Virus record (IMG/VR): IMGVR_UViG_2651869694_000009
Span: 1 to 27,070 of that record
From: a virus
Lineage: Duplodnaviria; Heunggongvirae; Uroviricota; Caudoviricetes
Strand: one strand, 5' to 3'
DNA: 27,070 nt
Positions 1,240 through 26,078 of this stretch are shown here, piece by piece. The notes under the pieces are model-generated. The model ran no database searches. It had not been told where the DNA came from and saw only the letters and a list, made by a program, of their open reading frames with translations. The number at the start of each line of letters is the position of its first letter. Position 1 is the stretch's first letter. Made by a program: the position numbers and the translations under genes.

Positions 1240-1617
1240 ATGCGTGATATTCAAATGGTTCTGGATCGTTGGGGAGCATGGGCGGCGAGTGATAGTTCAG
1301 GAGTAGACTATTCTCCTATAGCTGCTGGGTTTAAAGGGCTTCTTCCCTATACAAGCAAAACACGTCAGGCATGTTCAGATAGTGATGCATTAATTATTGA
1401 AGGTTGTCTTGCTCGTCTAAGGCAAAAAAGGCCGGACGAACATTCGCTTCTTGTTGCCCATTACCTATACGGTATCTCTAAAAGAAAGCTCGCCAAGGCT
1501 CGTAAAAAGGATGAGAAACTAATACGCATTGAGATACAGATGGCTGAGGGGTTTATTGATGGCTGCCTATCGATGCTGGAAATTAGTCTAGAGATGGACC
1601 CCGAAATTAAAGATTGA
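1240..1617 (+). CDS. Q: Late-gene antitermination protein Q (QuuD / phage-82 Q-like family)
   Basis: Translation MRDIQMVLDRWGAWAA...IAAGFKGL... closely resembles E. coli DLP12 QuuD as I remember it. The ATG at 1240 follows GGAGAAAG. The ORF track starts at an upstream TTG (1225). Confidence 0.85.
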   Translation: MRDIQMVLDRWGAWAASDSSGVDYSPIAAGFKGLLPYTSKTRQACSDSDALIIEGCLARLRQKRPDEHSLLVAHYLYGISKRKLAKARKKDEKLIRIEIQMAEGFIDGCLSMLEISLEMDPEIKD

Positions 1618-1622
1618 TTATT

Positions 1623-1648
1623 GAAGCCCGATTACTCGGGCTTTTGTT
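1623..1648 (+). terminator. Intrinsic terminator immediately after Q
   Basis: Hairpin AGCCCG (1625-1630) / CGGGCT (1637-1642) with a 6-nt loop, followed by TTTTGTT. It overlaps the stop codon of the convergent minus-strand gene. Confidence 0.6.
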
Positions 1649-2651
1649 CCACATCTCGAACATAGAGAATTACTGCTGACTTAATGTCACCATCGACGTG
1701 TTTTGCGTTAATGCTCAAATGTACAGGCTTTCTTTCCCACTCAGCTCGCTGCAATGCTTCTTTGTTTCCGGATTCATCAAGGAAAACATCCTGAACTACG
1801 CAGGTTAGACGTTGGTCGGTATCTACGCGTCGGACCTTAACTTTGAAACTCTCTGGGTCAGTATTATTGACTTCTTCAATTCGGTAAATACCATCAATCC
1901 TCATTTCTGATGAACGTCTACGAGCATTCGTAACCAACTCTTTCGCCATTTCAGAATCAATAGTAACGCCATCAATTTGAGCGTTATCTGAACGCACAAA
2001 GGATTTGACCATTTGGGTTTTAGCGTCATACGACATACGGTCCATGTTATCGAGAAGTGGTTTTTCCGCAATCATTTCTGAAATAACCCGCAGGCGTTTA
2101 GTTTCTTGCTCGCTCATGATCTGCATAGTCCGGAGATGTTCTTTCTCTCCATCCTTAGCAATTTCTGCAAGGCGAATATCTTTACGGTTGTCCAAGAACC
2201 GTTTAAATACTGTTACTCCGCCCCAGATGACTGCTGCGCCGAGAACAGTAAACATGATCTCAGTTGCGTTCATTTTACCAACAAGTTCCTGTGTGAGTTT
2301 GGTTAAAAAGCCATCAATGTTGATTTCTACTATTGAAGAACCCTGTTCTACCGTAACTTCTATTTCTAGGGCATCAAGTTCTTCTTTGGTCAGTTTGCGG
2401 ACGTCAGGGACACCGTACTTGGCAAGGGCATATGATTTGTTGATTTGAGCTTGCATTTCAACAAATCCCTTCATAACTGAAGGTGTTAGCGATCTGTTGA
2501 ATTTTTCACCGGTTAATCTGATGGTAAGGTTTGGCCATCCGTTGAAACTTAAACTGTCAGGTAAACCATAACCATCAAGATAGCTTTCAAGCAAATCGAA
2601 GGCTTGCTGCTCAGATTCAATGTCTACATGAATCTCATCAAACTTATCCAA
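1632..2651 (-). CDS. Hypothetical single-pass membrane protein (339 aa), moron gene; candidate superinfection-exclusion or abortive-infection protein
   Basis: Long ORF in AT-rich DNA (about 33% G+C in the 60-nt lines I hand-counted). One hydrophobic segment IMFTVLGAAVIWGGVTVF at about residues 131-149, followed by KRFLDNRKDIR. The start is TTG at 2651-2649, preceded by GAGGA with a 7-nt spacer. Opposite orientation to the phage backbone. Confidence 0.7.
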   Translation of the reverse strand: MDKFDEIHVDIESEQQAFDLLESYLDGYGLPDSLSFNGWPNLTIRLTGEKFNRSLTPSVMKGFVEMQAQINKSYALAKYGVPDVRKLTKEELDALEIEVTVEQGSSIVEINIDGFLTKLTQELVGKMNATEIMFTVLGAAVIWGGVTVFKRFLDNRKDIRLAEIAKDGEKEHLRTMQIMSEQETKRLRVISEMIAEKPLLDNMDRMSYDAKTQMVKSFVRSDNAQIDGVTIDSEMAKELVTNARRRSSEMRIDGIYRIEEVNNTDPESFKVKVRRVDTDQRLTCVVQDVFLDESGNKEALQRAEWERKPVHLSINAKHVDGDIKSAVILYVRDVEQKPE

Positions 2652-2825
2652 AAATATGTCCTCATTCTAAGCCAACTGTCACCGTGAGGTTTGGCAACGC
2701 CTGCTTTATTTTTCGTTTTAAGCTGTGTGGCAAAAAAATAATGGAAAAACAGATAAAAATCACTAACGCGGTCCGCATTTTCTAGATTACTGTGTTAAGA
2801 GTGGTTACTTCGCCACACAACTTAA

Positions 2826-2848
2826 ACCCGCCGCTGAGCGGTTTTTTT
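2826..2848 (+). terminator. Weak candidate intrinsic terminator or attenuator
   Basis: Short GC stem CCGC (2831-2834) / GCGG (2838-2841) with a 3-nt loop, then a run of seven T (2842-2848). The stem is short, so this is tentative. Confidence 0.35.
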
Positions 2849-4783: not shown

Positions 4784-5260
4784 ATGCAGGTACTAAATTC
4801 CCAGCGTAAAGCTTTCCTTGATATGGTGGCTTGGTCAGAAGGAACGGATAACGGACGACAACCGACACGTAACCACGGTTATGACGTTATTGTCGGTGGT
4901 GAACTCTTCACTGATTACTCCGATCACCCTCGCAAACTTGTCACGCTAAACCCGAAACTCAAGTCAACAGCCGCCGGACGTTACCAGCTTCTTTCACGCT
5001 GGTGGGATGCTTACCGTAAACAGCTTGGCCTGAAAGATTTTTCTCCAGAAAGCCAGGACGCTGTAGCTCTGCAGCAGATTAAAGAGCGTGGCGCTTTACC
5101 GATGATTGACCGTGGCAATATTCGTCAGGCAATCGACCGTTGCAGCAATATCTGGGCGTCATTACCTGGTGCAGGTTACGGTCAGTATGAACATAAAATC
5201 GGTGACCTGATTGCACGGTTTGAAGAGGCTGGTGGGGTGATAAATGAAGTTGAGCTATAA
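4784..5260 (+). CDS. R: Endolysin, lytic transglycosylase (lambda R family)
   Basis: 158 aa. The translation MQVLNSQRKAFLDMVAWSEGTDNGRQPTRNHGYDVIVGGELFTDYSDHPRKLVTLNPKLKST... is nearly identical to lambda R as I remember it. Confidence 0.93.
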   Translation: MQVLNSQRKAFLDMVAWSEGTDNGRQPTRNHGYDVIVGGELFTDYSDHPRKLVTLNPKLKSTAAGRYQLLSRWWDAYRKQLGLKDFSPESQDAVALQQIKERGALPMIDRGNIRQAIDRCSNIWASLPGAGYGQYEHKIGDLIARFEEAGGVINEVEL

Positions 5261-5636
5261 GCTGGTTATCGCTGCTTTCTTCGTTACTGTCATTGGTTCT
5301 TTCATCTGGTCAGCCAACCACTACTACAGCAAATATCAGTACGAAAAGAAACGTGCTGATGAGGCTGAACGAAATGCTGGATCAGCAACAGCCATTACCA
5401 ATAACGTCCTGCAATCACTGCAAATCGTCAATACAGTACTGGAGGCTAACCAGCATGCAAAACAGCAGATCGCACTGGAGTCACAGAGAACCCAGGAAGA
5501 TATCAAAATGGCTGTTGCGGATGATGATTGTGCTTCACGTGCTGTGCCTGCTGCCGCTGCTGACCGGTTGCGGAAGTACGCGGACAGTTTACGTGAGCGT
5601 TCCGGTGGCACCACTGCCACCCAGCCTGACTTCTGA
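5244..5636 (+). CDS. Rz: Spanin, inner-membrane subunit (Rz-like)
   Basis: Directly after R. N-terminal membrane anchor LVIAAFFVTVIGSFIW followed by a charged, probably coiled-coil periplasmic region. Confidence 0.8.
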   Translation: MKLSYKLVIAAFFVTVIGSFIWSANHYYSKYQYEKKRADEAERNAGSATAITNNVLQSLQIVNTVLEANQHAKQQIALESQRTQEDIKMAVADDDCASRAVPAAAADRLRKYADSLRERSGGTTATQPDF

Positions 5637-25064: not shown

Positions 25065-25666
25065 TGAATAACGCAGAATTAAACAGTGAATTAATTGCCA
25101 CTATGGCAGGAGAAATTACTGTTTATAACTTTGACGTCATGAGTCGGGAGTATATTTCAGCTTCAACTGAATATCTTGCTGTTGGTGTCGGCATTCCGGC
25201 ATATTCCTGTTTAGATGCTCCAGGCACCTACAAAGCTGGTTATGCAATCTGCCGCTCTGCAGATTTTAACTCATGGGAATATGTACCAGACCATCGCGGT
25301 GAAATCGTCTATAACACCGAAACGGGAGACGCCAAAGAAATCACAACTCCGGGTGATTACCCCGAAAAAACAACCACTATCGCCCCGTTAACGCCATACG
25401 ATAAATGGGATGGTGAGAAATGGGTAACGGATACTGAGACACAGCATAGCGCCGCAGTAGACGCGGCAGAAGCACAGCGTCAGTCACTGATTGATACTGC
25501 AATGGCTTCCATCAGTCTGATTCAACTGAAATTGCAGGCCGGGCGGAAGCTGACGCAGGCAGAAACCACCCGACTTAACGCTGTGCTGGATTACATTGAC
25601 GCGGTGACGGCAACAGATACCAGCACCGCGCCGGATGTCATCTGGCCTGAACTGCCGGAGGCGTAG
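25064..25666 (+). CDS. Tail fibre assembly protein (Tfa, current-orientation partner)
   Basis: 200 aa. Its C-terminus (LDYIDAVTATDTSTAPDVIWPELPEA) resembles the conserved end of the convergent minus-strand paralogue. Confidence 0.8.
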   Translation: MNNAELNSELIATMAGEITVYNFDVMSREYISASTEYLAVGVGIPAYSCLDAPGTYKAGYAICRSADFNSWEYVPDHRGEIVYNTETGDAKEITTPGDYPEKTTTIAPLTPYDKWDGEKWVTDTETQHSAAVDAAEAQRQSLIDTAMASISLIQLKLQAGRKLTQAETTRLNAVLDYIDAVTATDTSTAPDVIWPELPEA

Positions 25667-26078
25667 GCCATTCAATATCTGGCGCACCGGAAGTATCGAC
25701 CAGTTCCAGTGCGTCCAGGTAATCCAGCCACAAATTATATTGCGCCAGTTCGTCACCTTTCAGACGACCAATAGCCGCTTTACCAGGCCATTGTTTACTG
25801 TTCATATAAACGTTGGCCTGATTAATCAATTGCTGCTTCTCCAATTCGGCTGCAGCAATTTGTTCCTCATGTGTTGGTGGTGGAATTTCGGACCATGCAG
25901 GAAAACCATTTTCTCCAGCGATACGGATTTTTCCTTTCGGCGGTAATCCGGAAAACTCAATATACACTTGCTCATCAACTTCAACAGCATCATCTGGCCA
26001 TGAGTCAGCTTGAGTGTAATCCTCTTTCATCTCCAGCGGATAGAAAGAGTTTGTAGTCGCGGAATATATGTAATTCAT
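25638..26078 (-). CDS. Alternative tail fibre assembly protein (partner of the alternative fibre C-terminus)
   Basis: 146 aa, convergent with the + strand Tfa. C-terminus LWLDYLDALELVDTSGAPDIEWPTPPA matches the Tfa family pattern. Confidence 0.8.
   Translation of the reverse strand: MNYIYSATTNSFYPLEMKEDYTQADSWPDDAVEVDEQVYIEFSGLPPKGKIRIAGENGFPAWSEIPPPTHEEQIAAAELEKQQLINQANVYMNSKQWPGKAAIGRLKGDELAQYNLWLDYLDALELVDTSGAPDIEWPTPPAVQAR

Follow-up and report, generated by a model that had tools for sequence, protein, structure and literature searches.

The inverted repeat between the moron gene and the late genes of the prophage analyzed here probably is a non-functional by-product. The whole stretch of 27,070 nucleotides is called the window in the following. 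With moderate confidence, the repeat is not regarded as a unit; its two arms seem to be parts of two separate promoter-proximal elements which are located back to back, and their complementarity would have arisen on the side. The repeat itself is of little importance. What is gained is the annotation of the interval as a compact divergent promoter pair, consisting of a predicted moron promoter and a presumably Q-dependent late leader/terminator cassette, the latter being found in over 1,400 genome records of E. coli, among them K-12 DLP12 and some Stx2 phages. For the QuuD/PF06530 antiterminators, this annotation offers start sites that can be tested and a palindrome as a candidate for Q binding, and it also shows the insertion of cargo between Q and its promoter in these phages.

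The features of the interval are, in window positions:

2663-2659, minus strand: ribosome-binding site GAGGA of the moron gene
2717-2734: left arm of the repeat, TTTAAGCTGTGTGGCAAA, covering about -6 to +12 relative to the predicted moron start on the minus strand
2724-2731 and 2812-2819: exactly complementary 8-bp core of the repeat from sequence comparison, TGTGTGGC and GCCACACA
2740 to 2735, minus strand: predicted -10 hexamer of the moron, TATTTT, with TAnnnT at a fixed position in 27 of 27 distinct variants
2758-2763, minus strand: weak -35 candidate of the moron, GTGATT, read from the sequence, with a 17-nt spacer
2769-2777: palindrome GCGGTCCGC, candidate Q-binding element, between the -35 region and the -10 hexamer of the late promoter
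2788-2793, plus strand: predicted -10 hexamer of the late promoter, TACTGT, from TAnnnT conservation
2800-2848, plus strand: predicted late leader RNA of about 49 nt, its start deduced from the -10 hexamer
2809-2826: right arm of the repeat, TTCGCCACACAACTTAAA, covering about +10 to +27 relative to the predicted start of the late leader RNA
2829-2848, plus strand: intrinsic terminator with the hairpin CCGC-TGAG-GCGG within AAACCCGCC...GGTTTTTTT, followed by a T run

Genomic Context of the Interval

The window comprises the late region of a lambdoid prophage. The genes surrounding the interval are:

227-1222: DUF968 gene
1240-1617, plus strand: antiterminator Q gene, PF06530 (E = 2e-52)
1632-2651, minus strand: moron gene, 339 amino acids, TTG start, PHROG 6191, function unknown
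2947 (start codon): conserved ORF of 75 amino acids, PHROG 331

Beyond the moron, the 75-aa ORF is followed by a DNA methylase gene and then by the holin, lysozyme and Rz genes. The moron protein has no match among defense systems. Its homologues are encoded in 65 viral loci (49-100% identity), and most of those with at least 69% identity keep the divergent arrangement with the late cassette. Distant homologues (49-63% identity, L189-L206) are located in other contexts, which lack the late cassette as well as the CACAGC motif of the start region; therefore, the gene seems to move independently of the promoter region. The DNA of positions 2560-2760, which travels with the moron, was identified in 87 of 5,426 E. 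coli genomes and is nearly identical in 86 of these. It was not found in the phage collection, and the moron 5′ region had no match in the species-representative genomes scanned.

In addition, two structures were observed outside the interval. A plus-strand hairpin (AAGCCCGA-TTAC-TCGGGCTT) followed by TTGTT (1623-1647) is located just past the stop codon of Q and reaches into the final codons of the moron. It resembles a terminator, which would keep early-operon transcription from running antisense through the moron. Furthermore, a perfect 10-nt inverted repeat (TATCTTGCTG / CAGCAAGATA, 2908-2917 / 2980-2989) lies on either side of the start codon of the 75-aa ORF and could form a structure around its translation start.

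The Predicted Late Promoter, Leader and Terminator Cassette

Positions 2760-2848 probably represent the late promoter, leader and terminator cassette of the PF06530 Q family. The block GTTAAGAGTGGTTACTTCGCCACACA(A/G)CTTAAACCC together with the terminator recurs behind many unlike upstream sequences. By scanning viral contigs for the block GTTAAGAGTGGTTAYTTCSCCACACARCT, at least 120 loci were identified, among them 51 different 80-nt upstream sequences. Among the block matches listed, 86 loci have at least 3 kb of upstream sequence. In 85 of these, a PF06530 Q homologue (49-100% identity) is encoded on the same strand, and the distance between the end of this gene and the block ranges from 59 nt to 3.8 kb. 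Phage Ayreon, which carries a different Q, has in common with the window only the terminator and the downstream DNA, and the block is absent.

The right arm belongs to this cassette, and it is found conserved in DLP12 of K-12 as well as in over 1,400 records of E. coli. The homology with other phages begins at varying points slightly upstream of the right arm, and the DNA further upstream differs by phage. The cassette is directly preceded by the Q gene in 1720a-02 and by another moron in mEp460_4F5, PhiR40_1, and others. In K-12 DLP12, the block is located between nmpC and essD, and in phiP27 and Stx2a_1447 it is found upstream of methylase, tRNA and stx2 genes. In the PF06530 Q loci, cargo genes of many kinds, spanning 0 to 3.7 kb and often encoded on the opposite strand, were observed between the Q gene and the late promoter. 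The moron site was placed downstream of pR′/tR′ by Tree et al.

The hexamer directly 5′ of GTTAAGAG was compared across 43 distinct upstream variants. It starts with T in 41 of them and with A at the second position in all 43, followed by three variable positions and a T which is again present in 43 of 43. As the A at the second and the T at the sixth position are invariant, the hexamer is read as a -10 element, and the transcription start is predicted near 2800. The hexamer is also kept in 27 variants of the moron family. The late promoter has a poor -35 region, and its spacer ranges from 16 to 19 nt among the variants. A sigma-54 promoter at TGGCAA was dropped by eye, its spacing being 2 nt short.

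The 5′ half of the right arm provides the 3′ strand of a small hairpin in the leader (GUGGU/GCCAC), and its 3′ TTAAA is the A-tract ahead of the terminator. The stem and loop sequences of the terminator vary among relatives, while the hairpin pairing and the T run are kept, and the same terminator carries a terminator annotation in phage Ayreon. A search by eye for pause elements in the initial transcribed region gave two weak candidates, AAGAGT (2797-2802) and CAACTT (2819-2824). No matching paper was found in a full-text literature search for the leader sequence, and the K-12 3′-end mapping (supplements of PMC7815308) has no entry for essD or nmpC.

Another variant was observed in the locus L005 (E. 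coli 2017-02-2CC, NZ_AP027764.1, 3012-6108), in which an IS3 remnant takes the place of the moron. Its leader lacks the terminator hairpin, and CCACACAACT pairs with the downstream AGTTGTGG. The genes downstream encode an enterotoxin A family protein, a scabin-related ADP-ribosyltransferase and a subtilase AB5 B subunit.

The Palindrome as a Candidate Q-Binding Element

The position and the symmetry of the palindrome are kept in the loci L001-L142, and its type shifts with the Q clade. The type of the window, GCGGTCCGC, accompanies Q proteins which are 70-100% identical to the window Q. The type GCGTACGC is found with Q proteins of 51-58% identity, TTTACGWWCGTAAA-type palindromes with those of 49-53% identity (K-12 included) and TGTTATAACA with a Q of 50% identity, while the palindrome belonging to the phiP27 Q is GGAATTCC. 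In phages lambda and 21, the Q-binding element is located between -35 and -10 (PMC6606751). Because its type tracks the Q clade and its placement is the same as in these two phages, the palindrome may be the Q-binding element, of a kind unlike the direct repeats bound by Q21.

Taken together, sigma-70 RNA polymerase would start near 2800 from the late promoter with its -10 hexamer TACTGT (2788-2793) and the palindromic candidate element (2769-2777), make an RNA of about 49 nt and stop at the terminator (2829-2848). The Q protein encoded upstream would load onto the polymerase, and transcription would then run on into the methylase and lysis genes.

The Predicted Promoter of the Moron

The left arm was found only together with this moron family. 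The transcription start of the moron is predicted near A2728, which places it inside the left arm, and most clades share CACAGC at positions +2 to +7 of the predicted transcript. The -35 candidate shares sequence with the upstream region of the opposite-strand late promoter, and the surrounding GTTAGTGATTTTT is conserved across the moron variants. The first match of the promoter scan (minus strand, 2682 to 2653) was rejected, as its start would fall inside the coding sequence, and the conserved TATTTT was preferred. Between the window and L105, the left arm is changed at 5 of 18 positions, which is more than in its flanks.

The predicted starts, near 2800 on the plus strand and near 2728 on the minus strand, are 72 nt apart and diverge, therefore neither of the two predicted primary transcripts holds both arms. 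The first-pass annotation had presumed a promoter of the minus-strand moron in this interval and possibly a short plus-strand transcript ending at 2848. Both proposals are supported in silico, the former by the -10 hexamer, which fits TAnnnT in every variant, and the latter by the invariant A and T of its own -10 hexamer, the leader, and the terminator with its kept pairing.

Extent and Chance Level of the Inverted Repeat

The repeat had been described as an 8-bp pair about 80 bp apart, formed by CTGTGTGGC (2723-2731) and GCCACACA (2812-2819), with the remark that it may be due to chance. As read from the sequence, both parts are present. C2723 lies opposite A2820 and forms no pair, which leaves 2724-2731 and 2812-2819 as the exact part, with a gap of 80 nt between the two cores. 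The window contains 95 pairs of exact 8-bp inverted repeats with a gap of 20-150 nt, compared to 57 ± 10 in dinucleotide shuffles, and the 8-bp form of the repeat, taken alone, is at chance level. For the 8-mer, the remark thus nearly holds.

It does not hold for the longer form. The repeat lengthens to arms of 18 nt (2717-2734 TTTAAGCTGTGTGGCAAA and 2809-2826 TTCGCCACACAACTTAAA), which are complementary at 16 of 18 positions and separated by 74 nt. From start to start, the arms are 92 bp apart, corresponding to about nine helical turns. On the minus strand, both mismatches turn into G-U, giving 18 uninterrupted pairs. For a 16/18 repeat with a gap of 20-150 nt, the expectation is 0.04 per window, and at least one is present in 2.7% of 150 shuffles. 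In a local alignment of the two flanks, the observed score was attained in 2 of 500 shuffles. Because of this expectation and of the alignment result, the 18-nt repeat is considered as real and beyond plain chance. An inverted duplication of the whole promoter unit is not supported, as the similarity ends at 18 nt. A miniature transposable element was rejected, since the right arm is present without the left arm in more than 1,400 E. coli records and no flanking direct repeat or target duplication was found.

The sole other 16/18 inverted repeat of the window in the same gap range is located at 25585-25602 / 25711-25728, with the core GCTGGATTAC / GTAATCCAGC. It straddles the apparent junction of opposite-strand ORFs.

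Conservation of the Pairing and Alternative Explanations

The first alternative is a functional long-range RNA stem, as had been suggested in the first-pass annotation. In transcripts crossing the interval, the arms would form a helix of 16-18 bp enclosing both promoters. Such RNAs could originate from early-operon read-through on the plus strand or from antisense read-through on the minus strand, and the helix could remodel the leader or make an RNase III site, coupling moron expression to that of the late genes. Such a repeat is rarely expected by chance, its minus-strand version has 18 pairs including two G-U pairs, and the stem is part of the minimum-energy folds of both strands (-36.7 kcal/mol, z = -1.9, and -53.6 kcal/mol, z = -2.0). 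The folding of both strands hence recovered the proposed stem, with z-scores near -2.

The relatives do not maintain this pairing. In the window, the duplex energy of the arms is -19.9 kcal/mol on the plus and -28.6 kcal/mol on the minus strand. The relative L130, with 17 of 18 positions paired, is better than the window (-26.6 and -31.0 kcal/mol). In L105, in which the change of A2732 to G creates a pair, about -19 kcal/mol is reached, and in L005 about -15 kcal/mol. However, in L127 and L128, which keep the moron (98% identity) and the left arm and have a different leader allele, the energy is reduced to -5 to -11 kcal/mol, whereas it ranges from -20 to -31 kcal/mol within the window clade. 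For 21 additional lineages sharing the arrangement, the values are -8.9 kcal/mol for cognate arms and -8.4 kcal/mol for non-cognate arms (676 of 5,000 permutations), and the mean in shuffles is -7.0 ± 2.9 kcal/mol.

Among seven close variants (alignment A2), 85% of the cells pair, compared to 82.6% in shuffles, with one double change, and no covariation between the arms above the shuffle expectation was found in these variants. Position 2820 shows an A/G polymorphism in all contexts, whose alleles are freely combined with either C or T at position 2723. The late cassette was compared in 31 distinct upstream contexts. An inverted copy of the right arm is present solely in the moron family of the window, while the other 30 match it at 8-12 of 18 positions, which is shuffle-like. 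Moreover, the predicted starts leave no primary transcript with both arms, and the terminator-like plus-strand hairpin after Q (about 1623-1647) would limit read-through from the early operon. Strong pairing is thus restricted to the window clade and lost in close as well as distant relatives, and a functional long-range stem is considered unlikely.

A shared RNA motif is the second alternative. Both divergent transcripts would carry (G)CCACACA(A/G)CUUAAA near their 5′ end, and one trans-acting factor would serve both, a candidate being an Hfq-dependent sRNA such as GcvB with its target consensus CACAACA. The conserved CACAGC of the predicted moron transcript is consistent with this, as is the leader, in which CACACA(A/G)C is retained and predicted to lie in a single-stranded part. 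In addition, the phage sRNA AgvB binds GcvB through a CACAACA motif (PMC4104026). However, the moron transcript would include no more than about 12 nt of the left arm, and in many copies the GcvB consensus is disrupted by the A/G polymorphism. In addition, the diverged leader alleles lack the motif, and the leader is not homologous to AgvB or AsxR. A common factor is therefore judged quite unlikely.

Known small RNAs were also considered. An identity with the anti-sRNAs AgvB, AsxR or EcOnc03, whose sequences were taken from the supplement of PMC4104026, was rejected, since their conserved 3′ region of about 42 nt (AGTATCTCATGC..TTGCCCGAACCCAYTCGGGC) had no match in the window when up to 3 mismatches were allowed. 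HnrS (EcOnc10-12) was rejected as a different late-region sRNA. An Rfam scan matched no family at the gathering thresholds, and a permissive scan gave chance-level matches only. The best sub-threshold match is the Salmonella sRNA STnc130 (minus strand, 2816-2952, 25 bits vs. a threshold of 55, E = 0.11), which takes the hairpin at 2829-2848 as a minus-strand terminator. The stretch 2849-2946 is highly conserved, even in phages with other Q types.

Third, a single DNA-binding protein (either Q or a repressor or nucleoid protein) could recognize the arms as two inverted sites and loop or bracket the divergent promoters. A pair of protein-binding sites had also been suggested beforehand, and the arms do bracket both promoters, with roughly nine helical turns from start to start. 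Nevertheless, the late cassette occurs behind 30 other upstream sequences, none of which holds a second site, the left arm evolves faster than its flanks, and the clade-specific palindrome (2769-2777) is a better candidate for a protein site. This possibility is regarded as highly improbable.

Finally, an invertible promoter switch, in which recombination between the arms flips the 74-bp late-promoter segment to drive the moron, is hardly credible: the geometry of inverted repeats around a promoter-bearing segment is that of known invertible promoters, but a query in the flipped orientation matched 0 of 5,426 complete E. coli genomes, its best full-length matches being the 82 unflipped carriers (84.6% identity), all IMG/VR copies have one orientation, the segment is very short, and no link to an invertase was found.

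The By-Product Explanation and Its Limits

According to the preferred reading, the complementarity is a by-product of two neighboring modules. The left arm would overlap the start of the divergently transcribed moron (near 2728), and the right arm would belong to the leader of the late cassette. Two modules, each with a CACACAGC-type motif, would have been joined, and the complementarity may have been lengthened by drift, gene conversion or a small inverted duplication. The near-perfect complementarity over 18 nt appears to be limited to one recent clade and to lack selective maintenance. The arms do not keep their pairing in L127 and L128, in the 21 lineages or in the 30 other contexts, and this is what the comparison of related prophages, proposed as a check of the repeat, has yielded.

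Some observations count against this explanation. With an expectation of 0.04 per window, pure coincidence is unlikely, and the by-product account leaves the route of the repeat's origin unspecified. The 18 minus-strand pairs, the folds with the stem, the 17 of 18 pairs in L130 and the change of A2732 to G in L105 point in the same direction. A recently evolved function of the repeat in the window clade is conceivable. In its specific form, a newly evolved functional link in one prophage clade, RNAs across the divergent promoters would form the helix of 16-18 bp, which would be cleaved (e.g., by RNase III) or mask the late leader. This is rated very unlikely; if true, the expression of the moron in the lysogen would be tied to the state of late transcription.

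Comparison With Known Systems

The fimS-type invertible promoters resemble the interval in having inverted repeats around a promoter. They differ from it in that no second orientation was present in any genome examined here, no link to a recombinase was found, and the segment has only 74 bp.

AgvB, AsxR, EcOnc03 and StxS are short RNAs (51-74 nt) of lambdoid prophages, which are likewise encoded beside moron sites close to pR′. StxS, an early-termination product of pR′, represents a terminated leader with a regulatory role, and AgvB carries the CA-rich motif CACAACA. Unlike AgvB and AsxR, the window leader has no similarity to their conserved 42-nt 3′ part, and the leader RNA is a prediction from the sequence.

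In the DLP12 prophage of E. coli K-12 (quuD-nmpC-essD), the block and the terminator are present with one base different within the arm region (TTCGTCACACAG), and a minus-strand moron (nmpC) is also located between Q and the cassette. In contrast to the window, DLP12 has no upstream inverted copy of the leader sequence, its palindrome is of the type TTTACGTACGTAAA and its Q is only 49% identical. The DLP12 lysis cassette has been described to be under a Q-like factor, as cited in PMC7918800 (its refs 27, 28). In K-12 MG1655 (L140), the start of the lysis cassette, as far as it can be placed by the primers given in PMC7918800 and attributed there to an RpoE study, is located at about 4875, compared to 5224-5275 for the block. 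By this placement, the K-12 block follows about 350 nt downstream of this start, which represents a different promoter; therefore, its transcripts would have to pass the terminator of the block to reach essD.

The window Q is a distant relative of the phage 21 Q in the PDB (E = 7e-4), and the Q21 binding element at the phage 21 pR′ is also located between -35 and -10 (PDB 6P18, 6JNX; PMC6606751; bioRxiv 10.1101/651190). Unlike the Q21 element, which is a TGAGCA direct repeat, the candidate element is a palindrome here (GCGGTCCGC, GCGTACGC, TTTACGWWCGTAAA, and others), and it would be centered about 8 nt further upstream if transcription starts at 2800.

The pR′-qut-tR′ region of lambda with its 6S leader shows the same general organization. 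In both cases, a constitutive-type sigma-70 promoter, predicted in the window, is located 3′ of the Q gene, with the Q-binding element, a candidate in the window, between -35 and -10, and a short leader, predicted in the window, extends to an intrinsic terminator with the lysis genes downstream. However, the window Q is from a different family (PF06530), and its leader has a length of about 49 nt compared to 194 nt in lambda. Furthermore, the cargo is located here between Q and its promoter (0 to 3.7 kb) and not only downstream of tR′.
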